A stretch of DNA of 60,741 nt, from the IMG/VR virus record IMGVR_UViG_3300031576_000045, positions 1 to 60,741 of that record; one strand, written 5' to 3'. Below are positions 1 to 60,608 of the stretch, one piece after another. Position numbers and translations under genes: made by a program. The notes under the pieces were generated by a model. The model was not told where the DNA came from. It was given only the letters and a program-made list of their open reading frames with translations, and did no database searches. The stretch comes from a virus. Lineage: Duplodnaviria > Caudoviricetes. Each line of letters begins with the position of its first letter. Within the stretch, counting starts at the first letter, position 1.

Positions 1-107
1 TGGGCGCTCGGCGCGAAGATGGGCGACCGGAAGGCCATCACGATCGGCGACGTCATCGACGTGCTCGGGCAGTTCGCCGGCACGCTGGATCGCCGGGTCG
101 ACGCGCG
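1..107 (+). repeat. Exact copy of 56517-56623 (left anchor of variable cassette)
   Basis: Base-by-base identity up to first mismatch at 108, then progressive divergence. Confidence 0.95.
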
Positions 108-207
108 TCCGGTCGAGGTCATGCTGGGGCGCCTGCTCGTCGACGGCTGGAAGGAGTTCAAGTCGGTCGGGATCGACGGCGAGACGGAAGACGGGGAGGA
201 GGCGTAG
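1..207 (+). CDS. 3' end of DUF932-like protein (variant of 55347-56723), partial
   Basis: MGDRKAITIGDVIDVLGQFAGTLDRRVDARPVEVMLGRLLVDGWKEF identical to the C-terminus of 55347-56723; different last residues. Confidence 0.9.
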   Translation, partial: WALGAKMGDRKAITIGDVIDVLGQFAGTLDRRVDARPVEVMLGRLLVDGWKEFKSVGIDGETEDGEEA

Positions 208-209
208 TC

Positions 210-530
210 GTGGCGACCGTCACGATCACGCTGAAGTTCGTCGGCGCGGATCACTCCCGCGCCGTCGACGTCGTCGGGCACATGCTCGACGTCGGCACTC
301 TGCAGGACGCGATCTCCGAGGCGGCGCGCGATCTCGGGTACGCGACATCGATCGAGTCGACGACCGCCGATGCCGCCGACGTCGCTGGCCTGGCGATCTC
401 CGCAGTTCTCGATGCCGCGCTGTTCCTCGCCGAGATGAGTCACGCGCCGCACATGCGCCGCGAGCACGGCGCCCGGATCGAACGGTATAGCGAGCAGCTG
501 CTGAAGTTCCTGAAGGAGATCGGGCGATGA
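210..530 (+). CDS. hypothetical protein
   Basis: GGAGG upstream, GC3-biased codons, ATGA overlap with next gene. Confidence 0.75.
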   Translation: MATVTITLKFVGADHSRAVDVVGHMLDVGTLQDAISEAARDLGYATSIESTTADAADVAGLAISAVLDAALFLAEMSHAPHMRREHGARIERYSEQLLKFLKEIGR

Positions 531-1486
531 CGTTCCCGCGAACCTACTGGGGCACGCGCACGCCGGCCGGGTGCGAAGTACGCGTGACCGGCGACGGTCC
601 CGAGTACTTGCTGCCGACGTACTCGAACGTGCGCGACCACTCGCACGACTTCGAGTGGGGCTACAACGGATCGGGCCCGGCGCAGCTCGCGCTCGCGCTA
701 CTCTCCGATGCGTTCGGCGACGAGTCGGAGATCCCCGCGCGGTACTACCAGCGGTTCAAGGCCGACGTCGTCGCTGGCCTCGACCGCGCGTCGTGGGTCC
801 TGCAGCAGCGCACCGTGCTCGACCACGGGAACAGCTACCACCTAGAGCAGATCGAGCAGATCGACTCGACCGCGACCAAGCGCGCCGACTCTCTTCGGAA
901 GGCGCGCGCCGCACGCCGCGACCGGGCCGAACGCCGGAAGAAGCTCCGCGAGGAGCTCGTCTACTGCATCGCACCGCACGGCGAGCCACTCGACGGCACG
1001 TACTACACGCTCCACGCGCTGCACGGCGGGACGAAGAAGTATTCGCACCTCGTGACGACCGCGGGCGCGGTGAACCCGAAGCTGAAGAAGAAGATCTGCG
1101 ACGACTGCCGCGCGGTGCTGCTTGCGTGGAAGACGTTCGGACCCAACAAGCCGCTGACGTATCGCCGGCTGAACACGTGGCACACGGAGGAGTCGATCAT
1201 GGAAGCGGAGACGAAGACGCGGCGCGAGGTGGTGCTGGAGAAGGCGATCGGCGTCCTGAACAAGCCCACGACCCGATGCGAGAAGAAGTCGATCGCCATG
1301 GACTTCCTGATCGGCCTGCTGGCCGACGAGACCGCGCGGCGGAAGGGGCGGGCCGACGTCGTCTCGACGGTGATCGACGGCGCACGGTACGTCACCGACC
1401 ACGTCAAGGCGCGGAAGGCACTGCACCTGGAGCTGGTGAAGCTAGGACTCCCGCCCGAGGTGATCGCGGTCTTGACTGGCGCGTGA
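527..1486 (+). CDS. DUF6166-domain protein fused to a C-terminal domain homologous to 56723-56971
   Basis: HSHDFEWGYNGSGPAQLALALL motif; C-terminal AETKTRREV...RKALHLELVKLGLP. Confidence 0.75.
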   Translation: MTFPRTYWGTRTPAGCEVRVTGDGPEYLLPTYSNVRDHSHDFEWGYNGSGPAQLALALLSDAFGDESEIPARYYQRFKADVVAGLDRASWVLQQRTVLDHGNSYHLEQIEQIDSTATKRADSLRKARAARRDRAERRKKLREELVYCIAPHGEPLDGTYYTLHALHGGTKKYSHLVTTAGAVNPKLKKKICDDCRAVLLAWKTFGPNKPLTYRRLNTWHTEESIMEAETKTRREVVLEKAIGVLNKPTTRCEKKSIAMDFLIGLLADETARRKGRADVVSTVIDGARYVTDHVKARKALHLELVKLGLPPEVIAVLTGA

Positions 1487-1564
1487 GTGCGCCGGGTCGG
1501 GACGCGGATCCGTACCGCGTCCTGCGCCCGCTTCACTCACTCGAAGCACAACGGGAGAACGACG

Positions 1565-2524
1565 ATGACGAACGAGAAGACGAAGGCAGTCGCCGCGGTC
1601 GTGGCGCACCTCGAGAAGCAGTACGGCAAGGGCATCATCCAGCAGCTGGGCACGCCGTCTGAGCAGCAGGTGGCGGTGATCCCGACCGGCAGCGTCGGAC
1701 TCGACCGCGCGCTCGGGTGCGGCGGGTGGCCGCGCGGCCGGGTCGTGGAGATCTTCGGGCCGCAGGCGGGCGGGAAGACGACGCTCGCGCTCCACGCGGT
1801 CGCGCAGTGCCAGGCGCTCGGCGGCGTCGCCTCGTTCATCGACGCTGACCATGAGCTAGACATGGCGTACGCGCGCCGCGTCGGCGTGCGCGTCGAAGAC
1901 CTGCTCGTCTCGCAACCCGACACGGGCGATCAGTCGCTCGACGTCTGCGAGAGCCTCGTGCGGTCTGGCGCGATCGACCTGATCGTCGTCGACTCCGTGC
2001 AGTCGCTCGTGCCGCGATCGGAACTCGAAGGTGACGAGACGGTCGAAGGCATTCACGCACGTCTCATGTCGCAGGCACTGCGGAAGCTGACCGCCGCGAC
2101 GTCGCGGTCTGGCACGGTGATCATCTTCCTGAACGCGCGCACGCCCGGAGAGCAGATGACGGGGGGCAACTCGCTGAAGTTCTACTCGTCGGTGCGCGTG
2201 GAGCTCGGCCGCGTCGGCAACCTGAAGGACGGCGACGCGGTTGTCGGGTCGCGCGTCGGCCTCAAGGTCGTGAAGAACAAATGCGCGCCGCCGTTCGCGG
2301 TCGCCACGTTCGATCTCACGTATGACCGCGGCGTGCACCGCGAGGCCGAAGTGATCGATCTCGGCGTCGACTGCGGCCTGATCGAGAAGACCGGGTCGCA
2401 CTACGTGCTCGCCGGTGAGCGCATCGGGCAGGGGCGGGAGCGCGCGATCGAGTGGCTACGCGAGCGGCCGGCAGTGACCGAGGAGCTGGCGCAGAAGATT
2501 CTCGCGACCCCGGTGAAGCCGTGA
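1565..2524 (+). CDS. recA: RecA-like protein, divergent at catalytic and DNA-binding positions
   Basis: GRVVEIFGPQAGGKTT (Walker A), LIVVDSV (Walker B), ARLMSQALRKL, GGNSLKFYSSVR, VVKNKCAPPF, IGQGRE; start after GGGAGAACGACG motif. Confidence 0.95.
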   Translation: MTNEKTKAVAAVVAHLEKQYGKGIIQQLGTPSEQQVAVIPTGSVGLDRALGCGGWPRGRVVEIFGPQAGGKTTLALHAVAQCQALGGVASFIDADHELDMAYARRVGVRVEDLLVSQPDTGDQSLDVCESLVRSGAIDLIVVDSVQSLVPRSELEGDETVEGIHARLMSQALRKLTAATSRSGTVIIFLNARTPGEQMTGGNSLKFYSSVRVELGRVGNLKDGDAVVGSRVGLKVVKNKCAPPFAVATFDLTYDRGVHREAEVIDLGVDCGLIEKTGSHYVLAGERIGQGRERAIEWLRERPAVTEELAQKILATPVKP

Positions 2525-2913
2525 CCTACGCCGACTGGATCGCCGCGTTCGTCGCGCGGCACCGCGGGTTCGTCCGCGGCAAGTGCGACGCCGCGACGAC
2601 GGAGATGGTCGCCGCGTTCCCCGAGCTGCGCCGCGCCGCTGGGTTTGCTCACGTCTCGTGGGGTCGCGATCAACACTGGTGGTGCGTCGCGCCCGACGGC
2701 CTGATCGTCGACCCGACCGCGGCGCAGTTCGGCCCGGCCGGCACGCCGATCTGGTACGAAGAACTCGACTTGAACGACCCGGCGACGCGGGCCCGCGTGC
2801 CGACGGGGAAGTGCATGGACTGCGGCGGCGAGGTCTACGGCAGCGCGACGTTCTGCAGCGACGCCTGCGAGAAGGCGACGCGCGAGTACCACGCGGGGGT
2901 TTCGCTCCGATGA
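2521..2913 (+). CDS. Papain/transglutaminase-like protein (Cys-His-Asp) with C-terminal Zn ribbon
   Basis: GKC...HWWC...IVDPTAAQF triad pattern; CMDC...CSDAC. Confidence 0.55.
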   Translation: MTYADWIAAFVARHRGFVRGKCDAATTEMVAAFPELRRAAGFAHVSWGRDQHWWCVAPDGLIVDPTAAQFGPAGTPIWYEELDLNDPATRARVPTGKCMDCGGEVYGSATFCSDACEKATREYHAGVSLR

Positions 2914-3185
2914 AGAACTACGACGCGATTATCGTGCGGAAGCACGGCGTGCGCATCAAGGCGGGCACGGCGCGAGAGAACCGCGACGGGTCGGTCGAGA
3001 TCCACCTCGACGTGCTGCCGGTCGAGGGCGTGCTGAAGCTAGAGGTTCGCGACGCGACCCCGCCGAAGACATGGCACGTCGGCGACGATGTGTGCCCGTA
3101 CTGCGGCGCGATCGGCTGCAAGCTGCGCGCGGCCGAGACTCCGCACGGCACGGCGCTGCACGAGAAGCAGAAGGGAGGCAGGTAG
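2910..3185 (+). CDS. small beta-rich protein with Zn ribbon
   Basis: KAGTARENRDGSVEIHLDVLP; CPYC; ATGA overlap. Confidence 0.65.
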   Translation: MKNYDAIIVRKHGVRIKAGTARENRDGSVEIHLDVLPVEGVLKLEVRDATPPKTWHVGDDVCPYCGAIGCKLRAAETPHGTALHEKQKGGR

Positions 3186-3187
3186 TC

Positions 3188-3721
3188 ATGGGCTACGTCA
3201 TCGCGTACGTGAAGCCGAAGAACGGCGACCTGTCGGTCGCTCCGATCGGCTGGGCGACCCGGCGCGCGGCGCTCGGCGACTCGTCGATCGTCGGCCGCGG
3301 GTGGCCGGACTTCGAGGCGATGCTCGCGAAGATCGGCTTCGAGGTGAAACTCGGTGCCGTGCTGCCGAACGCGAAGGACTGGCCGTACACGTGCGTCGCG
3401 TACACGTCGCGCCGCAAAGATGGGCAGGCCGCAGTGGTTCGTCGATCTACCGTTTCCCGTGCCGTCGAAAAGGAGAACACACATGAGCAGGTCGCTGAAG
3501 CCGTTGTCGGTCGAACAGATGCACGATCAGCGGACGCGGACGACGGTCGAGATCATGTTCGACAGGAACGACAAGGTCTTCTTCGGCGTCGTCGAGCACG
3601 CTCGGATCTCGGCGCCGGCGATCGGCGAGCTGCGCGACGCGGTGAAGGCCGCACTCGCGAAGTTGCAGAAGGTCGCATGGTCGCGCGTGATCGAGCTCAG
3701 CGTCTCGAAGTCGGACCATAA
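3188..3721 (+). CDS. hypothetical protein (3' end uncertain, overlaps next gene)
   Basis: GGAGG RBS then ATG; coding-like codon usage over first ~80 codons. Confidence 0.5.
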   Translation: MGYVIAYVKPKNGDLSVAPIGWATRRAALGDSSIVGRGWPDFEAMLAKIGFEVKLGAVLPNAKDWPYTCVAYTSRRKDGQAAVVRRSTVSRAVEKENTHEQVAEAVVGRTDARSADADDGRDHVRQERQGLLRRRRARSDLGAGDRRAARRGEGRTREVAEGRMVARDRAQRLEVGP

Positions 3722-4139
3722 CAAGTGGGGGCAATCGGGGCACATCGCACGCCTGCAGGTTGAGCTCGACGTCTCGTTCTCGCGGTTCGAGGTCGGGAAG
3801 ACGTCGGCCGGCCTGTACCTCAAGCGCCCGTTCACCGAAGACCTTCACGACTCGTGGCGCGACTCCGTCGAGAACGACCCGCTGCGGTACTCGAGCACCG
3901 ACTTCGACGGCAACCCAAAGAAGGGCGACAAGGTGAACCGCATCCCGTACTCCGAGGCGACGTGGGTCGCGCTGAACGGCGTGAAAACCGCGATCGAGGC
4001 GGCGTATGAGAAGCTCGAACCGCTGTTCGACGCCAAGGACGGCGGGAAGAAGCTGCTCGCGTTGACCGACGTCCGGCTGCTGCCGGCGTCGACCGACGTC
4101 GTCGACGCGGTGCCGGCGAAGAAGGGAGCGCGCCGATGA
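3483..4139 (+). CDS. hypothetical protein
   Basis: AGGAGAACACACATG start; strong codon bias. Confidence 0.8.
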   Translation: MSRSLKPLSVEQMHDQRTRTTVEIMFDRNDKVFFGVVEHARISAPAIGELRDAVKAALAKLQKVAWSRVIELSVSKSDHNKWGQSGHIARLQVELDVSFSRFEVGKTSAGLYLKRPFTEDLHDSWRDSVENDPLRYSSTDFDGNPKKGDKVNRIPYSEATWVALNGVKTAIEAAYEKLEPLFDAKDGGKKLLALTDVRLLPASTDVVDAVPAKKGARR

Positions 4140-4843
4140 CGAAGACGAACGTCGACGAGATCCTGAAGGTCAAGGTCATGTCGCCTCCGTTCCGGTGCCC
4201 GTGCGGCTTCGAGCGCGCGGCGACGTCGCCGCTCGGGGCGATGACTCCGCACGAGCCGATCAGCTCGGACACCCGTGAGCAGTGTCCGAAGTGCGGCCGG
4301 TACCTCACCCGAGAGGAGTCACGGGCTAAGACCGGCACGTGCTCGTGCGAGAAGTGCCGGCAGCTCTGCAACGGGCGCCCCGGTCTCTTCGCGCCGACAG
4401 AGGTCGAGCCGGCCGCGGCCGAGTTCGGGCTGACGTTGGAGGAGTTCTTCGAGCGGCACCTGACGATCAACTGGTGGACGGACGATCCCGACGCCGGAGA
4501 CCTGGACGGGTGGGATCACGTCTGCCCGGGCTGGAACCCGAACGTGATCATGGAGCCGTTCCTGCCGCCGAGACCGCGGCCGTACTCCGGACCGTCGACC
4601 GTCGGCCGGCGCTGCACGAACGATGAGGGCCGCACGAAGGGGCCGTGCTCTCTGCTCGGGCCCGACGGGTGCCGGTTGTCGTTCGACCGACGCCCCGAGG
4701 AGTGCCGGCGCGCGTACGGGTGCAACCCCGACCCGGCATCGCGCGGCCTGGCGCTGCACGGCGACGTCGCGAAGAAGTGGAAGACGCCCGAGGGTCTCGC
4801 GTTGCTGGCTCGACTCGCGAAGTACAACGTGCAGGAGGACTGA
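4136..4843 (+). CDS. YkgJ-like Cys-cluster (putative Fe-S/Zn) protein
   Basis: CSCEKCRQLC...CSLLGPDGCRLSFDRRPEEC pattern. Confidence 0.65.
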   Translation: MTKTNVDEILKVKVMSPPFRCPCGFERAATSPLGAMTPHEPISSDTREQCPKCGRYLTREESRAKTGTCSCEKCRQLCNGRPGLFAPTEVEPAAAEFGLTLEEFFERHLTINWWTDDPDAGDLDGWDHVCPGWNPNVIMEPFLPPRPRPYSGPSTVGRRCTNDEGRTKGPCSLLGPDGCRLSFDRRPEECRRAYGCNPDPASRGLALHGDVAKKWKTPEGLALLARLAKYNVQED

Positions 4844-4845
4844 CC

Positions 4846-5427
4846 ATGGCGAAGAACAAGCGGAAGAAGCGCGGCTCGTCGTGGCGGGCGTCGAACGACC
4901 ACCACACGAAGCACCGGAAGAAGCTCGACGAGACCCCGGTGAAGCCAGGGGATCACGCCTTCATCGTCGCGCCGTCGTCCGCGGCGCGGCCGATGATCGA
5001 GCCTCTCAAGCGCGTCGTCGCAGTCGATCCTGCTTGGCCGGGTGGCGACGAGTCGGTGACCGCCATCATCGAAGACGGGAAGATCGTCGAGCTGTCCGCG
5101 TCCGACGCGCTGCGCGCGATGCCGCCGACGTCGCCGCCGTGGAACACGCGATACCTCGAGTACGCACGAGCGCACGGGACGTCGTCGCCGACGGCGATGC
5201 TGGCGCGGGATGAGCAGAAGTACCCAGGCGGCCGCATGGCCGGGTTCATCCTGTGGATCGGCCGGCGCTGGGAAGACTGGCGATGGAAGAACGGGCGCAA
5301 CGCGAACGACCCGCTGACGCAGGCCGATCAGGACTCGTTCGACGCGTGGCTGAAGGACTTCGTCGACGCCGTCGACCCGAACAAGATCGTCGCTCCGCCG
5401 CCGCCGAAGATCGCGGGGCCGTCATGA
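4846..5427 (+). CDS. hypothetical protein, C-terminal domain shared with 59242-59712
   Basis: PWNTRYLEYAR...PGGRMAGFILWIG...FDAWLK. Confidence 0.8.
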   Translation: MAKNKRKKRGSSWRASNDHHTKHRKKLDETPVKPGDHAFIVAPSSAARPMIEPLKRVVAVDPAWPGGDESVTAIIEDGKIVELSASDALRAMPPTSPPWNTRYLEYARAHGTSSPTAMLARDEQKYPGGRMAGFILWIGRRWEDWRWKNGRNANDPLTQADQDSFDAWLKDFVDAVDPNKIVAPPPPKIAGPS

Positions 5428-5654
5428 ACGTCTGGGTCAGCAGGTACCGGAACCGCAGCACCCGAACGACCATCCTTCACGCGTTCGGAGAGGTCGACGC
5501 CGGCCCGGCGCAGGAGTTCAGCTTCTGCGGTCGGGTCGCCGTCGTGAAAACCGAGCGCACCAAGGGCGAGACGTACCCGGCCGCGAAGTTCGGCTCCAGC
5601 GTCGACCACTGCATCAGCTGCGAGCGCACGGTGCGCCGTCGGGGGCTGCGGTGA
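5424..5654 (+). CDS. small Zn-binding protein (counterpart of 59960-60225)
   Basis: HAFG..FCG..HCISCERTVRRRGLR. Confidence 0.75.
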   Translation: MNVWVSRYRNRSTRTTILHAFGEVDAGPAQEFSFCGRVAVVKTERTKGETYPAAKFGSSVDHCISCERTVRRRGLR

Positions 5655-6037
5655 AGCCCGGCGAGCTGCACAAGGTGCACGCGGCGCACGACCGCAAGGC
5701 GAAGTCCCTGCGCGTCGACGTCGGCGACGTCGCGTGGCGCGGCGAGTCCGGCGCGCACGCCGTCAAGGCCGCCATGGCGCTACGTCTCGCGGTCTGCTGG
5801 AACGTCTGCGAGGGCATCCAGACCGACAAGCTCGAGGCCGGCGTGCTGCTGGACTACTACGTCGCGGTCGACCGACTGATCGCCGCCGTCGACGAGCCGC
5901 AAGGTCGACTCTTCCACAGCGCGGAGAAGGTGCTTGAGCTGATGCGCCTCGCGGCGCGGGTGAAGGAAGCGCAGCGACGGATCGGCGTCGAGCACTTCGA
6001 GTGCCTCGCGTGCGACGCGAAGAAGGAGACCGCGTGA
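5651..6037 (+). CDS. hypothetical protein (125/128 aa identical to 60222-60608)
   Basis: Direct comparison of the two translations. Confidence 0.85.
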   Translation: MKPGELHKVHAAHDRKAKSLRVDVGDVAWRGESGAHAVKAAMALRLAVCWNVCEGIQTDKLEAGVLLDYYVAVDRLIAAVDEPQGRLFHSAEKVLELMRLAARVKEAQRRIGVEHFECLACDAKKETA

Positions 6038-6288
6038 AACCCGTCGGGGTCCGAACCGAGGTCGACGGGAAGATCGTCGTCGAGTGGCACGCGCCGCCGA
6101 TCGGCGGGCCCGATTACCACACACTGTGTTGCGTCGACGCCGACGACCCGGTGACCGGGACGCACGGGACCGTCGATCCGAGGAAGGCCCAGAAGATCAC
6201 CTGCGCTCAGTGCCATCGCGTGTGGTCGGGCGTGCTGGGGCTGCACCTGAAGCCGGAGGACTTCGACCACAAGGTCGTGTTGCGGTAG
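6034..6288 (+). CDS. small Zn-binding protein (counterpart of 59709-59963)
   Basis: VKPVGVRTEVDGKIVVEWH...HTLC...ITCAQC. Confidence 0.8.
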   Translation: MKPVGVRTEVDGKIVVEWHAPPIGGPDYHTLCCVDADDPVTGTHGTVDPRKAQKITCAQCHRVWSGVLGLHLKPEDFDHKVVLR

Positions 6289-6310
6289 GACTGGAGACGG
6301 GAGAACGACG

Positions 6311-6517
6311 ATGAAGAGAGACGACCTGACCGCGCTGCGCAACGGGCTGCTGCGCATGCACTACGAGCCGCCGACCAGCGGGTTGACGAAGTGGACGCTG
6401 CAGCTCATCCGCGACCTGGAGGGAGAAGTCAGAATCCACTGGGAGAAGTCGAAGGGCGCCTACGACCGCGGGTTCACCGAGGGCCGCGCCTTCGCGAGAA
6501 AGCCGGCCCGTCGATGA
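6311..6517 (+). CDS. hypothetical protein
   Basis: Preceded by GGGAGAACGACG motif. Confidence 0.8.
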   Translation: MKRDDLTALRNGLLRMHYEPPTSGLTKWTLQLIRDLEGEVRIHWEKSKGAYDRGFTEGRAFARKPARR

Positions 6518-7149
6518 GCCTGCAGCCGAAGCCGATCATCATGTCGACGCCGATGGTGCTGTCGCTGAACGACGACGCGAAGACGCAGACCCGGCGCACG
6601 TCTGGCCTGGAAGGGTTCTCGCGCGCGGCCGTCGTCGCCGGGTATGAGACTAAGGGCCGCGACTTCTTCGCGCGGATCACGCAGCCAGACCGACGCGGGG
6701 ACCCGTGGGAGGCGATGGTCAAGTGCCGTTACGGCGGACCGGGCGGGCAGCTCTACGTACGCGAGGGCGTGCGGCGGAAGCCGGCCGACCCGAATGATCG
6801 CGGCTGCTGCGCCGAGTACATCGCCGACCGGGCGCCCGCGCCGTGCGACACGTGGGGCTGGAAGAACCCGGCGCTGCCAGCGATCCACATGCCCTCGGGC
6901 ATGTGCCGGCACCGGTTGGAGCTGATCGAGATCAGAATCGAGCGCGTGCAGTCGATCTCCGAGTCCGACGCGCGCGCCGAGGGAATCCGCTCCAGCGGGC
7001 CGGGCGTGTTCTTCTGGCCTGGCGCAGACCGGAACTACGCGACGGCGGTCGCCGCGTACATGCACGGGTGGGTCTGGCTCAACGGTCAAGGCTCGTGGGA
7101 CCTGAACCCGCTCGTCTGGGTCCTCTCGTTCAAGCAGGTGTTGCGGTGA
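6514..7149 (+). CDS. phage ASCH/PUA-like protein
   Basis: PMV...KTQTRR, LYVRE, PAIHMP, IERVQSISESDARAEG, SWDLNPLVWVLSF. Confidence 0.85.
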   Translation: MSLQPKPIIMSTPMVLSLNDDAKTQTRRTSGLEGFSRAAVVAGYETKGRDFFARITQPDRRGDPWEAMVKCRYGGPGGQLYVREGVRRKPADPNDRGCCAEYIADRAPAPCDTWGWKNPALPAIHMPSGMCRHRLELIEIRIERVQSISESDARAEGIRSSGPGVFFWPGADRNYATAVAAYMHGWVWLNGQGSWDLNPLVWVLSFKQVLR

Positions 7150-7680
7150 CGGAGACCGAGGTCATTCGCATGCTGCGCGAGGCGCTGATCGAGGTCTCGC
7201 GCGTCGAGCAGCGAGACGTACGGAACGACAAGCCGTGGACGATCCACGACGGCGACAGCTACGCCGACCTGGTGCGCTCAGAGGAATCGCGCAAGGCACT
7301 GGAACGCGGCCGTCGACGCGATCGCGGAGTCGGCCAAACCGGCGACGTCCGAGCTGGCCGACAAGCTCCACCTGACGAACGTGGTCCTCGATGAGCTCAT
7401 GCGCACCGGCGCCGTCGAGGTCAGCAAGCTCGCGCGCACGATCGCGGCGAAGATCCGTCACCCGAACGTCGACCTCTACGCGTTCTTCCGGTCCGGAGAG
7501 CCGATCCCGATCGTGCTGCAGTCGCCGAACGTCGTCTCGCTCGCCCACGTGGTGAGCATGGAGACTCAGCTAAACGTCAGCGGCATGATGGTGCGAATCG
7601 AGCTCCGTGTCTTCGATCGAGACCTGCGCGAGGCGACCTCGGGCTTGATCGGCCCGCCAGAGACCGGGGATCAGAGATGA
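7146..7680 (+). pseudogene. hypothetical gene with apparent frameshift near 7295
   Basis: Coding-like frame VTETEVIRML... switches to WNAAVDAIAESAK..., continuous with ORF 7381-7680. Confidence 0.5.
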
Positions 7681-7837
7681 GCCCGCTGACCCGAATCACC
7701 CAAGCCGCGGTCGAGGTCGACGTTCGGGACGGCGACTTCATGGCGCTTCAGGAACACATGCGCATGTGCCGCCACTGCCGGGCGCTGCTCGACCGCGGCT
7801 CGACTCGTGGAGCAGTTCATGCGCAAGGGAGACTCGT

Positions 7838-33399: not shown

Positions 33400-33770
33400 C
33401 AGCGCTTCACCGCCGCGCAGAGCGGCGCATGGCCGGTCATCTCTTCGCTGTCCTCGTAGCTGCACGTGCATTGCCTTGACCTCCACGCGTCGACGGCAGC
33501 GAGCACCGCGCGCTGCCCGTCGGCCGGCGTCGGTCCGAGCTCGTCCTTGAGCGCGTCGAACTGCCGCAGCTTCTTCCCGCGCATGATGCAGACGATCTCG
33601 AACCATCCCATCCCGCCTCGCGACGCGAGCTTCTCGAGATCCTGGTCGTGGTTCTCGATCGCCTGCCGCTCGAACTGTTGGATCCACGCCCACGGCACGG
33701 AGTGCGGCGGCGGCGTCTTTCGACGGTCCTCAGACAGCACCGGGAACTGTCTCTCTTGCTCGTTGCTCAC
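33399..33770 (-). CDS. hypothetical protein
   Basis: SVPWAWIQQFERQAIENHDQDLEKLASRGG. Confidence 0.7.
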   Translation of the reverse strand: MSNEQERQFPVLSEDRRKTPPPHSVPWAWIQQFERQAIENHDQDLEKLASRGGMGWFEIVCIMRGKKLRQFDALKDELGPTPADGQRAVLAAVDAWRSRQCTCSYEDSEEMTGHAPLCAAVKR

Positions 33771-34261
33771 GCGGCGTCCCGACTGCGCCCGATCAGCTTC
33801 TCGAAGAACGCGCGGGCGCGTGCCGCGTTCTTCGGTTCGTTCCACCATCGATTCAGGCCCGACGGGTGCGGCACGATCGCGAACTCCGTCTGCCGGTCGT
33901 CTCTGAATTTGAACCACTCGAACCAATCCCACGATGTCAGCGCGCCGAACGCGTCGGCGACGTTGCGGCCGACGAGCAAGACGTGCGTCCGAGACCACAC
34001 CTGAGGCTGAGTAAGCGTCGGCGTGCCGAAGAGAAGATCGCGGCCGACGTCGCGGGCGCGCGCGGCCGGCCACCTCGGGCCAGGGTACTCGTCGATCAGG
34101 TTCACCGCGTCGACGTTGCCGACGCCGGACGCCGACGAGCGCGTGACGCGCAGGCCCATCTCCCACAGCCTCTTCGCGCTGCGCTGCCGGCCGTAGAACG
34201 GCGGCCACCCGGGCGGCGTCGTGCGCGCCGGCGCCTCGCCGATCAGCAGCGGGCGCGTCAC
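33767..34261 (-). CDS. uracil-DNA-glycosylase-superfamily protein
   Basis: LLIGEAP (motif A), VLLVG, VPHPSGLNRWWN (motif B). Confidence 0.8.
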   Translation of the reverse strand: MTRPLLIGEAPARTTPPGWPPFYGRQRSAKRLWEMGLRVTRSSASGVGNVDAVNLIDEYPGPRWPAARARDVGRDLLFGTPTLTQPQVWSRTHVLLVGRNVADAFGALTSWDWFEWFKFRDDRQTEFAIVPHPSGLNRWWNEPKNAARARAFFEKLIGRSRDAA

Positions 34262-35079
34262 GTCGTCACCCGTGGAAGCGGCGAGGTCGGGATTGAGCCG
34301 CCCTCCCCGGTGGTGGTGCCACCGGGCGAGCCTTTTTCGCCGCGCTTCGGGTACGGCTGCCGTCTCTTCTCTACCATCTCTGCGAGTCTCTCGTCCTTCG
34401 GGTCCAGCAGGAAGACGTAGCGGCCCTTCGGGTTCGCGGTCTGCCGCTTCCACCCGTCGGCGAGAAGGCGCGCCTCGACCTGCTTGTTCGTCATCCCGGT
34501 GCGGCGCGCGTAGTCCGTCTGCTGGTTGAGGCTCCACAGCCGGCCCTTCGGGCTGACCCACTGCGGCCACGCGTCGCCCTTGCCGACGAAGGTCCAGTTC
34601 GTCGCCTGGTACACGGTGCCGATCTCCCCGGCGTCGGAGTCGGAGAACGCGATCGCCAGCTTCGAGCCGCGCTTCGCCTCGAGCTTCAGCGAGTAGCCGA
34701 TGAGCTTGGAATTCGTCCCGACCGGCGCCCAGTGCACGCACGCGCCGCGCACGAGGTAGGCGAGCTCGTGGTTCTCGATGCCGAACGACTTCGCCAGCGC
34801 CGGGAGCGCCTTCCCCGCTGGCGTCCAGCACGTGACGCCGGCGACGTACGGGCCGAACGAGAGGCCGTAGCACCGGTTCGTCGCGGTGCCCATGGTGCCG
34901 AGCCACTCGTACTTGAAGATGATCTGCTTCGCGACGTCGTACGCGACCGGGCCGACGCGCGCGGTCTTCAGGCTCAGGTCGACGTCCGGCGCCGGCTCGT
35001 GCTGGTGACGGTCGCGCAGCTGCTTCTGCCACGCGACGCCGCCCGACTCCTGGATGCTACGAAACGTGTGTCTCGACAC
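34258..35079 (-). CDS. mom: Mom-family (GNAT-fold) adenine modification protein
   Basis: KYEWLG..LVRGAC..NSKLIGYSLK..FSDSDAGEIGTVYQATNW..KGRYVFLL..PYPK. Confidence 0.85.
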   Translation of the reverse strand: MSRHTFRSIQESGGVAWQKQLRDRHQHEPAPDVDLSLKTARVGPVAYDVAKQIIFKYEWLGTMGTATNRCYGLSFGPYVAGVTCWTPAGKALPALAKSFGIENHELAYLVRGACVHWAPVGTNSKLIGYSLKLEAKRGSKLAIAFSDSDAGEIGTVYQATNWTFVGKGDAWPQWVSPKGRLWSLNQQTDYARRTGMTNKQVEARLLADGWKRQTANPKGRYVFLLDPKDERLAEMVEKRRQPYPKRGEKGSPGGTTTGEGGSIPTSPLPRVTT

Positions 35080-35656
35080 CTGGCACCTTCGCGATCGCCT
35101 CGACGTGGGCGCGGATCTTCTCGAACGCCGCGCGCGTGCACCTGACCTCGACGTAGACCTCGGACTCCAGAGACGGCTCGCCGGTCGGGTTCTGGTCCGG
35201 CAGCTCCAGCGAGGCGATCAGTTCGTCGACGTCGTCGCGCTCGAACCCGGTGCCGGCCAGCGCGTCGTCGCCCCACCCGGAGATCATGTCGACCAGCTCC
35301 GCGCGGTTCCAGTCGCCCTTCGCGACGAGGTTGTTGACCGCGACCAGGAACGCCTCGGCGTCGGCGTCGTTCTTCGACGACCACCCGCGCTGCACGGGGA
35401 TCAGCCACCGGTCGCCGTCGACCTCGACGCCGTCGGGCGGCGGCGCACCCTTCTTCTTCAGCGCCCCGAGCGCGTCGAGCCGACCGTGACCGCCGACGAT
35501 GCGTCCGGTTCGCTCGTCGTAGATCATCCCGTCGGCGTACCCGAACCGCGCCACCGACGCTTCGAGGTCTTCGTCGGCGTGCTTCTTCGGGTTACGCGCC
35601 GCCCGACGAATCTCGTCTAGCGGCATGTACTCCGTCCAGCGCTTCTGTTTCTTCAC
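35057..35656 (-). CDS. ParB/Srx-like N-terminal domain protein
   Basis: RNPKKH..SVARFGY..IVGGHGRLDAL..VNNL..GDW. Confidence 0.85.
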   Translation of the reverse strand: MKKQKRWTEYMPLDEIRRAARNPKKHADEDLEASVARFGYADGMIYDERTGRIVGGHGRLDALGALKKKGAPPPDGVEVDGDRWLIPVQRGWSSKNDADAEAFLVAVNNLVAKGDWNRAELVDMISGWGDDALAGTGFERDDVDELIASLELPDQNPTGEPSLESEVYVEVRCTRAAFEKIRAHVEAIAKVPGVETHVS

Positions 35657-38446: not shown

Positions 38447-38466
38447 CGTCGTTCTCCCGTGGACGG

Positions 38467-55350: not shown

Positions 55351-56723
55351 CGGCGCGAATGACGGGCACGGGGTTCAACCGCGCGATGTGGGACGAGACC
55401 AGCCACGTGCTGCGCACGGCCGAGACCCGCGACGAGGGCCCGACCCTCGCCGGCCTTGATGACGAACGGGCGGCGCAGCTCGGCCGGCTCCACGAGCTGC
55501 CTTCCCTCGGCGAGGTGCTCTCGGCGTGGGCGACGCAGCGCCAGAACGACGAGTGCGAGGACTACGCCGTCGACTTCAACGACCTGCTGATGGCGGGCGA
55601 CGGGACCTTCCGTCGCATGGCCGCTCGGTTCGACGAGGAGCGCGGCCTCACGAAGTCGATGCCCGGCAACCTGCCCATGACCTACCGCGTGTTCGGCAAC
55701 GTCATTCGTCACTACTGCGCGCCGCGCCGCAACGTCGCCGCGAACCTCATCCTGCTCCCGACGTCGGCGCGCGGCCCGGGTCACGCTGCGTCGACGTCGC
55801 GGGTCGAGTCGACCATGGGCGGCGTGTGGACGGACTCGCCGCTCGCGATCGCCTACAACGCGTTCCTCGACCGGAAGAAGGCAGTCGACGCGTCGGTGAC
55901 GACCATCGACGAGTCGGCCGTGACCGAGCTCATCCTCCGAACCCGCCTCCTCAACGGGCCGCGCGTCGACGGCGAGGCCCCGACCGCTCGCAGGGTCGTC
56001 ATCGGCGCCGTCACGCCGTCGCACTGCCTGCAGAACGGCGACGACGACAAGCTGATCGCCGCGCTGTCTCTCGCGTTCGCCGGCCACGGCGAGACCGGCC
56101 GGGCCATCGCCTTCCGCGGCGTGGAGGAGTCGGAGCTGCGCGCGGTCTTCCCGGCGCTGACCGTCGAGATCCCGAACGGCGGCGCTGAGAAGTGGGTCGG
56201 CTACATCACGGCCCGGAACAGCGAGTCGGGGAAGAAGTCGTGGGCGATCTCGGCCGGCCTGTACCGGGCCGGCGACTCCGCGTCGTTCGCGTGCGAGGCG
56301 GTCGTCCGCACGGGTCGCCACGTCGGGTCGAAGGTCGCCGAGCGCATGGTCGAGGTGGCGGAGGGCGCGGCCGAGATGCTGAAGAAGCTGCTCGAGACCG
56401 TCGCGGAGCTGGCGGGCCGCACGTGGGACCGCAGCACCGACGAGTTCCTGAAGCGGATGCGCGCCGCGCTCGACGGGACGCCGCTGCACGACCCCGACAC
56501 CGCGTGCCTCATCGCGTGGGCGCTCGGCGCGAAGATGGGCGACCGGAAGGCCATCACGATCGGCGACGTCATCGACGTGCTCGGGCAGTTCGCCGGCACG
56601 CTGGATCGCCGGGTCGACGCGCGGCCGGTCGAGGTCATGCTGGGTCGCCTGCTCGTCGACGGCTGGAAAGAGTTCCGCGCCGCGGGCACCGAGAAGCTCG
56701 AAGACGGGTCGGAGGAGGGCTGA
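55347..56723 (+). CDS. DUF932/DUF945-like protein
   Basis: LRTR..IGAVTP..RNSESGKKSW.ISAGLYR..RHVG. Confidence 0.65.
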   Translation: MTARMTGTGFNRAMWDETSHVLRTAETRDEGPTLAGLDDERAAQLGRLHELPSLGEVLSAWATQRQNDECEDYAVDFNDLLMAGDGTFRRMAARFDEERGLTKSMPGNLPMTYRVFGNVIRHYCAPRRNVAANLILLPTSARGPGHAASTSRVESTMGGVWTDSPLAIAYNAFLDRKKAVDASVTTIDESAVTELILRTRLLNGPRVDGEAPTARRVVIGAVTPSHCLQNGDDDKLIAALSLAFAGHGETGRAIAFRGVEESELRAVFPALTVEIPNGGAEKWVGYITARNSESGKKSWAISAGLYRAGDSASFACEAVVRTGRHVGSKVAERMVEVAEGAAEMLKKLLETVAELAGRTWDRSTDEFLKRMRAALDGTPLHDPDTACLIAWALGAKMGDRKAITIGDVIDVLGQFAGTLDRRVDARPVEVMLGRLLVDGWKEFRAAGTEKLEDGSEEG

Positions 56724-56971
56724 TGCCCGCCGAGACGAAGACCCGGCGCGAGGTCGCCCTGGAGCGGGCGCTCATCGCGCTGCATGCGGTGAAGCATCCG
56801 CTGAAGGACGTCGCCGCGAGCATGCTGATCGGACTCATCGGCGCGGAGAGCGCGAAGCGCCGCGGTGAGGTCGCGGTGCACGACGAGGCGACGGTGCGCA
56901 AGGCGCTGCACGTGGAGCTCGTGCGGATGGGCCTGCCGAACGAGGTGATCGCAGCGCTGAAGTGGGTGTGA
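56723..56971 (+). CDS. hypothetical protein (stand-alone form of the 527-1486 C-terminus)
   Basis: MPAETKTRREV..RKALHVELVRMGLP. Confidence 0.75.
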   Translation: MPAETKTRREVALERALIALHAVKHPLKDVAASMLIGLIGAESAKRRGEVAVHDEATVRKALHVELVRMGLPNEVIAALKWV

Positions 56972-56973
56972 CC

Positions 56974-57256
56974 ATGGGTCCCGACCTCAGCAGCTACGAC
57001 GTCGTGATCGTCGCGTTCAGCGGCGGCAAGGACTCGATCGCGTGCGCGCTGCACCTGATCGAGAGCGGCGTGTCCCGCGACCGGCTCGAGCTGTGGCACC
57101 AGGACGTCGACGGAGTGGCTCCGCCGCTCGCTCTCGGCCGTCGCCCGGCGCGTCCGTCACCCCGGCAACCACCGCTACGTGTGGGCGCTGAACCGCCGCG
57201 ACTGGCGGCACCTTCCGGAGTCGCAGCCCTACCCGAAGTTCACGAAGGAGAGCTGA
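56974..57256 (+). pseudogene. deletion chimera: PAPS-reductase-like 5' end + Mom-like 3' end
   Basis: VAFSGGKDSIAC..LELWHQDVDG, then out-of-frame RRVRHPGNHRYVWAL..QPYPK*. Confidence 0.75.
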
Positions 57257-57257
57257 C

Positions 57258-57704
57258 GTGGCCGACCACTCTGCATGTCCGCACCCGTGCTCATCGTGCC
57301 CGTGGTTGATCGCGAACCACGGCAAGCCGCATCCGCACGGCTGGTACACGAAGGCGAACCGAGAGCGCCTCTGGGCGAAACTGCGCAGGGGTGACTCGAT
57401 GTCCTGCCACCCGACAGATCCGGACAACCCGGTGCCCGAGGGTCATCGGGCCGCACCAGAGGACTCGATCGTCAAGGAGTGCACCGGGGCGCTCGTTCTG
57501 CAGCAGCGCGAGGTGATGAACTTCCAGGCGGCCAAAGATCGCGGCGCCTACCGCAAGCAGCACCCGCGCGGCATGACGCTTCTGGGGCTCGCCGCAGTAA
57601 TCGAGCGCGTGATGTTCGGCGGTCTGATGGGTTCGTTGAAGATGACGAAGCCCGACCTTAACGAGCCTGTCGGCCACGACGGGCTGAACTGGGTCCAGCG
57701 ATGA
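57258..57704 (+). CDS. DUF6283-like Cys/His protein
   Basis: PCSSCPW..SCH..CTG. Confidence 0.6.
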   Translation: MADHSACPHPCSSCPWLIANHGKPHPHGWYTKANRERLWAKLRRGDSMSCHPTDPDNPVPEGHRAAPEDSIVKECTGALVLQQREVMNFQAAKDRGAYRKQHPRGMTLLGLAAVIERVMFGGLMGSLKMTKPDLNEPVGHDGLNWVQR

Positions 57705-59242
57705 GCGTCCTCCTCTCGAAGGAAGCGATCCGGCTCCTCCGCACCGTCTCGCACGACCTGGTGATCGACCTCTTCGCCGGCGGCGGCGGTACCTCGGCCG
57801 GCCTCGAAGACGCGATCAAGCGCCCCGTCGACGTCGCGCTGAACCACGACGCGGTCGCGATCGCCGTGCACGCGAAGAACCATCCGAACACGGTGCACAT
57901 TCAAGAGGACATCTGGAACGTGCGCCCGCGCGACGTCGTCGGCCGGCGGAAGGTGTGGATCCTGTGGGCCTCGCCCGACTGCAAGCACTTCAGCTCGGCG
58001 AAGGGAGCCGAGCCGCTCGACAACAAGATCCGGATGCTCGCGGAGGCGGTCGTCGACTGGGTGAGCGACCTCCTCCCCGAATTCGTGTTCCTCGAGAACG
58101 TCGTCGAGTTCCGAAAGTACGGCCCGCTCGGCGCCGACCGGCGACCGATCAAGGAGCGCGAGGGCGAGTATTTCGACCGCTTCATCGGCAAGCTGCAGCT
58201 GCTCGGCTACCGCGTCGAGTGGCGCATCCTCGACTCCAGCGAGTTCGGCGTGCCGACGAAGCGCCGCCGGTTCTACCTGGTGGCTCGCCGAGACCAGCGC
58301 CCGATCGAGTGGCCCCAGCCCACCCACGGCGCCGGGCTGCTGCCGCTCCGCGGTGCGGTCGAGTGCATCGACTGGTCGCTGCCGTGCCCGAGCATCTTCC
58401 TCACGAAGGAAGAAGCCCGCGCGCTCGCGAAGATCGACCCGCGGATCGGCAACATCAAGCGCCCGCTCGCCCCGAAGACTCTCTGGCGCGTCGCGCACGG
58501 CTTCAAGTACTTCGTGCAGGACCACCCGGACCCGTACATCAGGCCCGTCGACGGGAACCTCGAAGCGCCGTTCATGGTGCAGAGCGGCTACGGCGAGCGG
58601 CCGACGCAGCGCGCGCGGTGGCTCGACATGCACAAGCCGCTCGGCACCGTCGTGGGCTGCGGACCTCGGCACGCGCTCGTCACCGCCTTCCTCACGAAGC
58701 ACTTCGGCGACTACGGCGACCCGCGGAAGGTGAAGCACCTCAACAAGGACGTGCGCGACCCGCTCGGCACCGTCACCGCTCGCGACCACACGAGCATCAG
58801 CGCGGTGACGCTGCTCCGTCTGAACCACGACGACCACGGCGTCGACATCCGCAAACCGATGCCGACGGTGCTCGCCGGCGGCTTCCACGTCGCCCAGGTG
58901 CAGGCGTTCCTCACCGCGTACTTCGGGAGCGACGGCCAGAAGGGGAAGGGCCAGGACGTGCGCGACCCGATGCGCACGGTGACGACGAAGCCGCGCCTCG
59001 GGCTGGTCACGGTGTACGGCGACCAGTACGAGGTCGCGGACATCGGCTATCGCATGCTCAAGCCCGACCCCGAGCTGCTCCGCGCGCAGTTCGACGAGTA
59101 CGCGGAGGGCTACGACCTCTCGCCGGCTGAGACCGACGAGGAGAAGAACCGGATGGTGGGCAACTCGGTGGTGCCGAAGATGGCCAAGCTGATCGTCGAA
59201 GCGAACATCTCAACGTCGGACTCGTACAGGAGGGCAGCCTGA
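57701..59242 (+). CDS. dcm: C5-cytosine DNA methyltransferase
   Basis: DLFAGGGG (I), SPDC (IV), LENV (VI), RRRFY (VIII), GNSV (X). Confidence 0.95.
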   Translation: MSVLLSKEAIRLLRTVSHDLVIDLFAGGGGTSAGLEDAIKRPVDVALNHDAVAIAVHAKNHPNTVHIQEDIWNVRPRDVVGRRKVWILWASPDCKHFSSAKGAEPLDNKIRMLAEAVVDWVSDLLPEFVFLENVVEFRKYGPLGADRRPIKEREGEYFDRFIGKLQLLGYRVEWRILDSSEFGVPTKRRRFYLVARRDQRPIEWPQPTHGAGLLPLRGAVECIDWSLPCPSIFLTKEEARALAKIDPRIGNIKRPLAPKTLWRVAHGFKYFVQDHPDPYIRPVDGNLEAPFMVQSGYGERPTQRARWLDMHKPLGTVVGCGPRHALVTAFLTKHFGDYGDPRKVKHLNKDVRDPLGTVTARDHTSISAVTLLRLNHDDHGVDIRKPMPTVLAGGFHVAQVQAFLTAYFGSDGQKGKGQDVRDPMRTVTTKPRLGLVTVYGDQYEVADIGYRMLKPDPELLRAQFDEYAEGYDLSPAETDEEKNRMVGNSVVPKMAKLIVEANISTSDSYRRAA

Positions 59243-59712
59243 TGGGACGTGACTCACGGAAGAAGAAGGAACGGCGGCTGGGGCTTCGCGTCGGCCGACT
59301 CGGCGCGCAGCTGAAGGACGGCACGCTCGAGCTCAGGGGCCCGTTCGAGCCCGCCGAGCATCAGCAGAAGTCGACGGTGATGGTGCCGTCGGCGGCGATC
59401 AACGCCGACCGGCCGAACGCCGAGCCCTGGACCAGCCGGTACCTCGAGTACGCGAGGCACGAGGGCACGCCCGACCCGGCGGTGATGGTCCGCCGCGACG
59501 AGAACCGGTTCCCGGGCGGGAAGATGGTCGGCTTCATCCTCTGGATCGGCGCGCGCTGGGCGCAGTGGCGCGAGCTCCGCGGGCTGAAGCACGACGCGCC
59601 GCTGGCGGACACGCACCACGAGGACTTCGACGGGTGGCTCAAGACCTGGGTCGACGAGAAGACCCGGCGGATCATCATGCCGGCGCCGCAGCAGCTCGCG
59701 AGGCCGCGGTGA
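59242..59712 (+). CDS. counterpart of 4846-5427 with different N-terminus
   Basis: PWTSRYLEYAR..PGGKMVGFILWIG..FDGWLK. Confidence 0.8.
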   Translation: MGRDSRKKKERRLGLRVGRLGAQLKDGTLELRGPFEPAEHQQKSTVMVPSAAINADRPNAEPWTSRYLEYARHEGTPDPAVMVRRDENRFPGGKMVGFILWIGARWAQWRELRGLKHDAPLADTHHEDFDGWLKTWVDEKTRRIIMPAPQQLARPR

Positions 59713-59963
59713 AGCCGATCGGAGTCCGGACGGAGGTCGACGGGAAGATCGTCGTCGAGTGGCATGCGCCGCCGATCCCCGGCCCCGACTACCACACGAT
59801 GTGCTCCCTCGACGGGGACGACCCCGCGACCGGCACCCACGGGACCGTGGAGCCGAAGCCCGGTCAGAAGATCACCTGCAAGCACTGCTACCGCATGTGG
59901 CGCGGAGTCCTCGAGCTGCAGCTGAGGGCCGAGCACTTCGACCACAGGGTGGTGCTGCAATGA
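59709..59963 (+). CDS. counterpart of 6034-6288, in a different position
   Basis: VKPIGVRTEVDGKIVVEWH. Confidence 0.8.
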   Translation: MKPIGVRTEVDGKIVVEWHAPPIPGPDYHTMCSLDGDDPATGTHGTVEPKPGQKITCKHCYRMWRGVLELQLRAEHFDHRVVLQ

Positions 59964-60225
59964 ACATCTGGGTCAGCCGGTACCTGACCGCGGCACGAGG
60001 CAGAAGATCCTCCACGCCTTCGGAGAGACCGAGGCGACTGTGACGGCGAACCTTCAAAAGGTGAAGTTGCCGATCGCCGCTCAACCGAGAAGCTTCTGCG
60101 GCCGCATCGCGCTCGCGAAGTGCGAGCAGCGCAAGGGTGAGCCGTTCTCGGCCGAGAAGTTCGGCTCGCGGGTGGACCACTGCATCAGCTGCGAGCGCAC
60201 GGTGCGCCGTCGGGGGCTGCGGTGA
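59960..60225 (+). pseudogene. counterpart of 5424-5654 with 1-nt deletion near 59985
   Basis: MNIWVSRY, then shifted frame DRGTRQKILHAFGE...HCISCERTVRRRGLR. Confidence 0.7.
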
Positions 60226-60608
60226 AACCCGGCGAGCTGCACAAGGTGCACGCCGCGCACGACCGCAAGGCGAAGTCCCTGCGCGTCGACGTCGGCGACG
60301 TCGCGTGGCGCGGCGAGGCCGGCGCGCACGCGGTCAAGGCCGCCATGGCGCTGCGCCTCGCGGTCTGCTGGAACGTCTGCGAGGGCATCCCGACCGACAA
60401 GCTCGAGGCCGGCGTGCTGCTGGACTACTACGTCGCGGTCGACCGGCTGATCGCGGCCGTCGACGAGCCGCAAGGTCGACTCTTCCACAGCGCGGAGAAG
60501 GTGCTTGAGCTGATGCGACTCGCCGCGCGGGTGAAGGAGGCGCAGCGACGGATCGGCGTCGAGCACTTCGAGTGCTTGGCGTGCGACGCGAAGAAAGAAA
60601 CGCGGTAG
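60222..60608 (+). CDS. near-identical copy of 5651-6037
   Basis: 3 aa differences in 128. Confidence 0.85.
   Translation: MKPGELHKVHAAHDRKAKSLRVDVGDVAWRGEAGAHAVKAAMALRLAVCWNVCEGIPTDKLEAGVLLDYYVAVDRLIAAVDEPQGRLFHSAEKVLELMRLAARVKEAQRRIGVEHFECLACDAKKETR

Follow-up and report, generated by a model that had tools for sequence, protein, structure and literature searches.

An uncultured phage that probably infects a member of the Myxococcaceae carries a recA gene whose product is RecA by profile and by fold, yet, judged from its residues at E96, at Q194 and in the loops L1 and L2, would not be a recombinase. The gene lies at positions 1565..2524 (+ strand) of the IMG/VR virus record IMGVR_UViG_3300031576_000045 (Duplodnaviria; Caudoviricetes), which was analysed over its whole length of 60,741 bp and is referred to here as the window, and it encodes an intact, open protein of 319 residues (P0001). 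The reading that we favour, with a probability of roughly 45%, is that P0001 is a mimic of RecA, dead for DNA binding and for coprotease activity, which mixes with the RecA1 of the host.

The family to which the protein belongs can be seen from profiles as well as from structure. P0001 matches the Pfam RecA profile (PF00154) with 317.2 bits (cut-off 27, E = 1.1e-94), the RecA_C profile (PF21096) with 62.3 bits (cut-off 27) and the NCBIfam RecA equivalog TIGR02012 with 392.6 bits, which is above the cut-off of 325.3; on the same equivalog, the nearest cellular relative of P0001 (P0002) scores 521.7 bits. Solved RecA structures are matched at E values of about 1e-95 to 1e-107. An AlphaFold2 model, made with a 55-sequence alignment, has the RecA fold with a predicted local distance difference test score (pLDDT) of 89.8 and a predicted template modelling score of 0.86, and the confidence drops only near the shortened loops and the N-terminal linker. 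The best Foldseek match of this model is the RecA filament protomer 7jy6_A (TMq 0.89, E = 9e-44). By the model and the Foldseek match, P0001 has the three-domain RecA fold, with the N-terminal helix and RecA_C both present.

The residues that set P0001 apart were read against E. coli RecA chains and one enterobacterial RecA, which supplied the residue numbers. All of the substitutions listed in the original prediction for this gene (E96D, Walker A, L1, Q194 together with an L2 shortened by 8 residues, R226G and R243G) are present in the alignments, and all are encoded on the + strand. At the catalytic Glu96 position there is an Asp (1847..1849), DAEHA having become DADHE. Walker A has changed from GPESSGKT to GPQAGGKT (1757..1780; E68Q, S69A, S70G), with K72 and T73 kept. 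In L1, EGEIGDSHMG has become EGD--ETVEG, leaving a remnant (GDETVE, 2030..2047) that is 2 residues shorter and has a Glu in place of M164. In L2, the aligned stretch reads LNARTPG--------EQMTGG: Q194 is replaced by Ala and 8 residues are deleted, including I199–P206 and thereby F203, so that the remnant is ARTPGEQM (2135..2158). The position of the L2 gap is ambiguous, as HMMER pairs an Arg with R196 and MAFFT does not; the loop residues lost or replaced are G160, K198, G200, G204, P206 and T209, to which R196 is added under MAFFT. Measured against full-length RecA loops, both L1 (157–164) and L2 (195–209) fall short. Two arginines of the groove have become Gly: R226, a site-II/groove residue (2207..2209; DIRR to ELGR), and R243, which belongs to the groove basic patch K232/R243/K245 (2258..2260; TRVKVVKNK to VGLKVVKNK) and whose partners K232 and K245 are kept. 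The net charge of the DNA-facing segments (L1, L2 and residues 224–245) is −3 in P0001 versus +1 in its sister proteins.

Other elements of RecA are retained: Walker B D144 (IVVDSV), K216/F217/Y218 (KFY), R222, K232, K245, K248, K250 and the C-terminal domain. The original prediction had named KFY, K248/K250, the C-terminal domain and the N-terminal polymerisation segment as kept. This is borne out for the first three and only in part for the N-terminal segment, some of which has changed and whose first residues are supplied by a start cassette of the phage; in addition, P0001 lacks the flexible C-terminal tail, some 14 residues long, with which the sister proteins end.

The altered state was searched for in cellular and in viral RecAs. 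D96, the L1 deletion and the 8-residue L2 deletion occur in none of the 119 best homologues (63–68% identity, 341–346 residues) drawn from 5.8 billion clustered proteins, many of which are named RecA of Myxococcus, Corallococcus, Pyxidicoccus or Archangium. Among 195 comparator RecAs, in which E96 and Q194 are each 100% conserved, there are 105 near-invariant columns (at least 95% conserved): P0001 deviates at 24 of these, and for the comparators the median number of deviations is 0 and the highest, found in a viral RecA, is 15. The count for P0001 is well outside what chance would give. From 39 viral loci, filtering left 22 distinct full-length phage RecAs; E96, Q194 and the length of L1 are kept in all 22, and the length of L2 in 21, the remaining one being short by a single residue. 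There are 1220 GenBank phage records with a RecA-like match, and the best identity to P0001 among them is 51%. Peptide-pattern scans, including variant-specific stretches, gave nothing closer (best 49% in IMG/VR, 62% in GTDB genomes and 68% in JGI metagenomes). When residues 145–212 alone were used as the query, the best foreign match reached 65 bits versus 130 bits for the self-match, with no relative sharing the variant. Nor was there a relative sharing it among the 50% representatives of the clustered proteins, and scans of IMG/VR with the neighbouring genes of the RecA variant returned nothing.

Two other unusual RecA-like proteins were noticed in the search of the representatives. One (P0128, 340 residues) has E96S and a scrambled or degenerate L2, yet passes TIGR02012 at 353.5 bits; the other (P0264, 270 residues) has E96D with both L1 and L2 altered. 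In scans of viral sequences, P0128 had no relative and P0264 matched ordinary RecAs alone, at 45–48% identity, so that neither could be placed on a phage.

The origin of the gene can be read from a RecA tree (FastTree, LG + gamma). Two metagenome-assembled myxobacterial genomes, labelled Myxococcaceae and Myxococcales, each have two full RecA genes. One paralogue from each of these genomes, together with named Myxococcus RecAs (341–345 residues), makes up the clade within which P0001 is placed, and the other paralogue of each (RecA2-type) is in a separate clade. Within its clade, P0001 groups with nine metagenomic Myxococcaceae-type RecAs (Shimodaira–Hasegawa-like support 0.92), and the branch leading from that node to P0001 measures 0.55 substitutions per site versus 0.07–0.21 in the nine sisters, i.e., 3–8 times longer. 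We equate the clade containing P0001, provisionally, with RecA1. In M. xanthus, RecA1 is the paralogue with strand-exchange and LexA-cleaving activity, and RecA2 shows neither of the two in vitro (PMC7029660). The tree supports the view, put forward in the original prediction as a backbone resembling myxobacterial RecA1, that P0001 is host-derived and of the RecA1 type. Because P0001 nests in the Myxococcaceae RecA1-type clade, the host of the phage is probably a member of that family, and the G+C content of the record (68%) fits such a host.

Directly at the start of the RecA variant lies a 15-nt motif, GGGAGAACGACGATG (1553..1567, + strand), which consists of a Shine-Dalgarno-like GGGAGA, a 6-nt spacer and the ATG; thus, the predicted arrangement of an intact, full-length open reading frame (ORF) behind a recurrent start motif of the phage is what is found. 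The window contains 9 exact copies at gene starts (at 1553, 6299, 45296, 48676 and 60619 on the + strand and at 36188, 37967, 38458 and 41405 on the − strand), compared with 0.02 expected from shuffles, and the motif is absent from the fetched comparison loci apart from one locus that is a piece of the window. The RecA variant (1565) and the gene that starts at 48688 have 28 nt in common, including the codons for MTNEK; similarly, the genes at 6311 and 60631 have the first codons MKRDDL in common. The motif and the 28-nt identity with the gene at 48688 together indicate that the 5′ end of recA was refitted by the phage. The motif could be a translation signal, or it could be a recombination linker for the swapping of genes. 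The G+C content at third codon positions is 0.90 in the RecA-variant gene, which resembles that of the other genes of the phage.

The changes in P0001 are distributed very unevenly along the protein. Relative to the myxobacterial consensus, and with expectations taken from 163 comparators at a similar or greater distance than P0001, there are 10 differences in L1 (4.1 expected), 16 in L2 (4.4 expected) and 2 in residues 94–100 (0.4 expected), versus 17 in the C-terminal domain (37 expected) and 4 in residues 34–60 (11.5 expected). The same is seen when only the changes on the phage branch are counted, at the 262 sites for which the sisters and the outgroup give a clear ancestral state: 26 of 40 sites have changed in the L1/L2 windows (65%) versus 42 of 222 elsewhere (19%; Fisher p = 1.3e-8), which agrees with the earlier claim that the alterations are selective rather than diffuse. 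None of 19 sites in residues 34–60 and 3 of 35 in the C-terminal domain have changed; taken together, these two regions account for 3 changes at 54 non-loop sites, compared with 39 at the remaining 168 (p = 0.003, for a split made post hoc). Expressed relative to ordinary RecA1 divergence, the rate is 27-fold in L1, 17-fold in L2 and 3.4- to 4-fold in the ATPase core (residues 61–149), and it is 1.0-fold in residues 34–60 and 0.7-fold in the C-terminal domain. This rate profile inverts the usual RecA pattern, in which the core is most conserved and the termini are variable.

The nature of the replacements points in the same direction. The 41 non-loop replacements have a mean BLOSUM62 score of +0.49 versus −0.49 ± 0.26 in simulated neutral change, a value that 0 of 2000 simulations reach, and for the 12 among them that hit universally conserved sites, and that would not have come with any cellular donor, the mean is +0.67 (p = 0.009). 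Both insertion–deletion differences are in frame and limited to surface loops. The regional pattern and the conservative replacements argue against plain decay. Neutral decay had been named at the outset as an outcome that would count against a function, and the gene, with its conservative replacements and its loop-focused change, does not appear to be simply decaying. In our reading, the RecA fold and some of its surfaces would have stayed under constraint, and the constraint on DNA binding and ATP turnover would have been lifted or reversed.

The following mechanism is proposed. A tailed phage of a probable Myxococcaceae host, in which no lysogeny genes can be recognised, captured a host recA of the RecA1 type and gave the captured gene the phage's own start signal at its 5′ end. 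The copy was then remodelled: L1 and L2 were cut down, Q194 and E96 were replaced, two groove arginines were lost and the negative charge of the DNA-facing surface rose by about 4 units. Ordinary constraint would have persisted on the RecA fold, the Lys and Thr of the P-loop, Walker B, K248/K250, the KFY relay, residues 34–60 and the C-terminal domain. The resulting protein would still bind ATP and present the subunit–subunit faces of RecA, and would be unable to hold single-stranded DNA, to turn over ATP or to offer the F203/R243 dock to LexA-type substrates. If produced early in infection, P0001 would enter or cap host RecA1 filaments via the retained subunit faces, such that a P0001 protomer would interrupt both the growth of the filament and the six-protomer dock for LexA. 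The outcome would be less SOS/LexA-type signalling and less RecA-dependent host recombination on phage DNA, the recombination of the phage itself meanwhile being done by its own YqaJ/RecT pair. Of this chain, the data show where the gene comes from, its anatomy, the selective pattern of its changes and its place in a cassette; the binding of ATP, the heteropolymerisation, the inhibition and the benefit to the phage are what we infer.

What is known of the altered residues is consistent with such a protomer. In RecA, Q194 serves as the gamma-phosphate sensor through which ATP is coupled to high-affinity DNA binding. E96D alone gives a protein that has no ATPase activity and still binds DNA, and its toxicity in E. 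coli, which requires DNA binding, vanishes once DNA binding is removed (PMC6182174); P0001 has probably lost DNA binding. Cryo-electron microscopy has located the docking of LexA, UmuD, lambda CI and DinI on F203 of L2 and on the K232/R243/K245 patch of RecA, and F203A as well as charge reversal at R243 compromises the corresponding reactions (PMC9926225). Without F203 and R243, P0001 fits an SOS-silent protomer, and the combination of E96D, Q194A and the loss of the loops makes it likely that the protomer binds ATP without hydrolysis, without a grip on single-stranded DNA and without a coprotease dock.

Whether P0001 can associate with a RecA of the host type was addressed by complex prediction. 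The pair of P0002 and P0001 scored 0.39 (runs 0.40, 0.39 and 0.02; best control 0.00), a value to which memory of solved RecA filaments may have contributed, with an agreement between runs of at least 0% of contacts and a partner pLDDT of at least 80. In the calibration of the method, 58 of 80 solved complexes and 2 of 110 mismatched pairs came up to the mark; a score of 0.60 or below was obtained for only 7 of the 80 solved complexes, and for both of the mismatches that passed. The prediction lends weak support to a co-polymerisation of P0001 with host RecA1.

P0001 can be compared with several groups of known proteins. It is like the RecA1 of Myxococcaceae (the M. xanthus MXAN_1441 type) in being 63–68% identical over its full length, in nesting within that clade and in having the same three-domain fold; it is unlike RecA1 in having lost E96, Q194, 2 residues of L1, 8 residues of L2, R226, R243 and the C-terminal tail, in being encoded by a phage with a phage start signal, and in having a branch 3–8 times longer. 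The positions that are altered are the same as those of laboratory RecA mutants (E96D; Q194, which is Q196 in M. smegmatis RecA; L2; the recA56 type), and structures of the M. smegmatis Q196A, Q196E and Q196N proteins are among those listed by Foldseek. Co-dominant negative alleles such as recA56 act through mixed filaments. Unlike the laboratory mutants, P0001 naturally combines several lesions with loop deletions in a single phage gene. As a phage-encoded protein of RecA fold, P0001 resembles phage RecA, UvsX and Sak4; unlike the full-length phage RecAs described above, it is altered at E96, at Q194, in L1 and in L2. A core-only protein of the RadB or Sak4 kind was considered and rejected, as the RadB profile (TIGR02237) gives 42.9 bits versus a cut-off of 172.4 and as P0001 has both the N-terminal helix and RecA_C.

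A cellular precedent for the proposed action may exist in the same bacteria. ImuA, an accessory of the ImuA–ImuB–DnaE2 mutasome, has a RecA-like fold, which is in line with weak matches of RecA to the ImuA profile. P0001 was rejected as an ImuA (NF033429), since it scores 53.9 bits versus a cut-off of 150 and the ordinary RecA P0002 scores 52.1. M. xanthus ImuA, itself devoid of DNA-binding activity, binds to RecA1 and inhibits both the DNA binding and the recombinase activity of RecA1 (bioRxiv 10.1101/2020.12.14.422803). By analogy, ImuA would be a precedent for what P0001 is proposed to do; it differs in being a cellular, distant and shorter paralogue, P0001 being a recent RecA1 derivative in a phage. 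The proposed outcome, a dampening of RecA and SOS, is the one attributed to PsiB, RecX, DinI, Hex of phage 434, AriS of a Listeria phage and factors of ICEBs1. These factors are not RecA homologues and their folds are unrelated, so that P0001 would differ from them in being an inhibitor derived from its own target. Within the full-text literature covered, which is incomplete, no phage-encoded RecA-derived inhibitor or decoy was found.

The phage itself is a tailed one, since the record encodes a large terminase (TerL), a portal, a major head protein and a tape measure. No tyrosine integrase, serine integrase or S24 peptidase was found in the window, and on these grounds the idea that the RecA variant shields a CI-type repressor of the same phage was dropped; for a record scored as 77% complete such an absence falls short of proof, although the overlapping ends suggest a closed circle. 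The original prediction had also pointed to a separate recombination pair, and there is indeed a YqaJ-like exonuclease (PF09588; 45837–47096, + strand) followed by a RecT-family annealase (PF03837; 46889–48562, + strand), both identified by profile match, along with an SbcC-like ATPase and a RuvC-like resolvase. With these genes of its own, the phage does not need RecA for recombination. It also invests heavily in DNA modification, to judge from the gene content: a cluster on the − strand (33767–41156) includes a Mom-family protein (34261–35079), a methyltransferase-like protein of 578 residues (36222–37955), a RuvC-like gene (38470–39132) and a DUF5131 gene (40056–41156), to which a Dcm-type methylase can be added in one version of the locus described next.

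The RecA variant belongs to an early accessory cassette that exists in two versions. Version A (160..6281, + strand) comprises a DUF6166 gene (527–1486), the RecA variant and a further seven ORFs that match no family; version B (56676..60601, + strand) has a C-5 cytosine DNA methylase (57701–59242) and no RecA. Positions 1–159 of the record repeat 56517–56675 (98%), and 6282–6421 repeat 60602–60741 (99%). These repeats at the ends of the contig imply that the assembly traverses a single early locus two times, with other contents on each occasion. This suggests that the record represents a closed genome, whose length would be about 56.5 kb with version A and 54.3 kb with version B, and the CheckV assessment of "linear, 77% complete" probably understates its completeness. 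In Logan contigs from one study, a cave metagenome, version A is present with 0 differences at a depth of 14–17, the shared anchors have a depth of about 100–110 and the branch into version B about 95–98; the contig branch that leaves position 159 runs exactly into 56676–56705. The depths and the Logan match show that the RecA cassette is real in an independent assembly of what are probably the same reads. A related record (G001, L046 15475–16694) has, at the position of cassette A, homologues of the small protein encoded at 2910–3185 and of the cassette-B gene 57258–57704; with a different gene set at this position, the locus is mosaic across relatives.

Within version A, a gene for a protein of 130 residues (2521..2913, + strand), without a Pfam or PHROG match, follows the RecA variant, the GTG with which it begins being overlapped by the stop codon of recA (GTGA). 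In the 78-nt spacer that separates the DUF6166 gene from the RecA variant, there is a perfect 8-bp hairpin (1495–1520), consisting of GGACGCGG, a 7-nt loop and CCGCGTCC, which has no trailing T-run. A scan of 1–7800 for promoters found no promoter-like sites, and terminator-like sites were at chance level.

Some of these observations weigh against the favoured reading, and most of them would suit an explanation in which P0001 has little or no function: a captured recA that was first inactivated, perhaps because it was harmful to the phage if active, and that is now a passenger, drifting on its way out. P0001 is a one-member cluster, from one contig and one study, and a singleton in every collection searched, so that conservation of the altered state across lineages cannot be shown; the original prediction had listed the absence of conserved homologues, here those sharing E96D and the L2 deletion, as a result that would count against it, and this is the result that was obtained. 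In the phage record most closely related to this one (TerL identity 66%, structural genes syntenic), RecA is absent and other genes take its place, and a TerL scan of IMG/VR gave four related records, none with RecA, although all of these are fragments (6–51% complete) and thus weak evidence. Even in its own sample the RecA cassette is a minority allele (about 15%), dispensable and not obviously favoured. In the N-terminal segment, which is the polymerisation helix, 7 of 22 confidently reconstructed sites have changed. Outside the loops, universally conserved and variable sites have changed alike (12 of 84 versus 15 of 76, p = 0.40), which resembles a broad relaxation. The ratio of nonsynonymous to synonymous rates is raised on the phage branch, at about 0.6 versus 0.13–0.24 on cellular branches, in a crude three-taxon comparison by pairwise Nei–Gojobori estimates that are unreliable because codon bias (about 0.9 G+C at third positions) compresses the synonymous rate. 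The intactness of the ORF was rejected as a sign of selection, as a stop-free frame survives in 12–28% of neutral simulations (probability of no stop 0.12–0.28 under a simple neutral model). Nevertheless, a drifting passenger seems unlikely to us: the strongly non-uniform change, highest in the loops and lowest in the C-terminal domain and residues 34–60, the conservative replacements even at sites that are invariant in cellular RecA, the restriction of both in-frame indels to loops, the maintenance of the phage start motif and codon usage, and the confident fold prediction all stand against it.

Two further explanations would give P0001 a function other than that of a filament poison, and we consider each to be somewhat less probable than the passenger. 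P0001 might be a positive accessory factor, like Rad51 paralogues or RadA/Sms, which aids the loading, stabilising or remodelling of host RecA filaments or of the RecT/YqaJ machinery and so promotes recombination or replication of the phage. Rad51 paralogues with reduced DNA-binding loops serve as filament chaperones, the phage is rich in recombination genes, and the fold, P-loop, interface elements and C-terminal domain of P0001 are all retained; against this, the variant is unlinked to the RecT/YqaJ operon, lying about 10 kb from it when the map is closed, and belongs to an exchangeable cassette, the version-B phages manage without it and dominate the sample, and E96D with Q194A does away with the ATP cycle on which mediators usually depend. 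Alternatively, P0001 might act away from the filament as a decoy or sponge, a monomer or small oligomer that titrates a partner of RecA or a host factor that recognises it (examples would be RecX/DinI-type regulators, mediators and RecA-monitoring immune sensors) via its C-terminal domain. The C-terminal domain is the best-kept part of P0001 though the most variable among cellular RecAs, and the cassette alternates with an anti-restriction-type methylase, at the kind of locus where counter-defence genes sit. Yet the loss of F203 and R243 makes DinI, LexA, UmuD and CI unlikely targets of a decoy. A role as decoy for RecA-sensing defences, which the original prediction had offered as its second possibility, found no backing: PADLOC gave no match of P0001 to a defence-related family, only an 18.5-bit P-loop match to mad8.

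If the reading of P0001 as a poison of host RecA1 filaments is true, P0001 would amount to a dominant-negative recombinase made by a virus, in effect a dominant-negative RecA of natural origin, and would represent a new class of counter-host protein that is built from its own target. A more general form of this idea, that phages repeatedly convert a captured host recA into a filament poison that is ATP-locked, DNA-blind and LexA-invisible and that shuts down RecA signalling and recombination in the host or disarms RecA-dependent immunity, is one that we hold to be doubtful; if it were true, the gene described here would be its cleanest case at full length. As RecA is studied as a target for slowing the evolution of resistance, P0001 could, if the reading is true, be a natural SOS-blocking reagent. 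P0001 is also a warning for phage annotation and for counts of recombinases, as pipelines would label it "recombinase RecA" (it passes TIGR02012). The polymorphism of RecA variant versus Dcm-type methylase, at about 15:85 in one sample, could be used to follow the trading of early accessory genes within phage populations. For the RecA family, the regional pattern of change can be seen as a natural separation-of-function experiment: L1, L2, E96, Q194, R226 and R243 would be removable once the DNA work of RecA is not required, and residues 34–60 and the C-terminal domain would be the parts that remain constrained.

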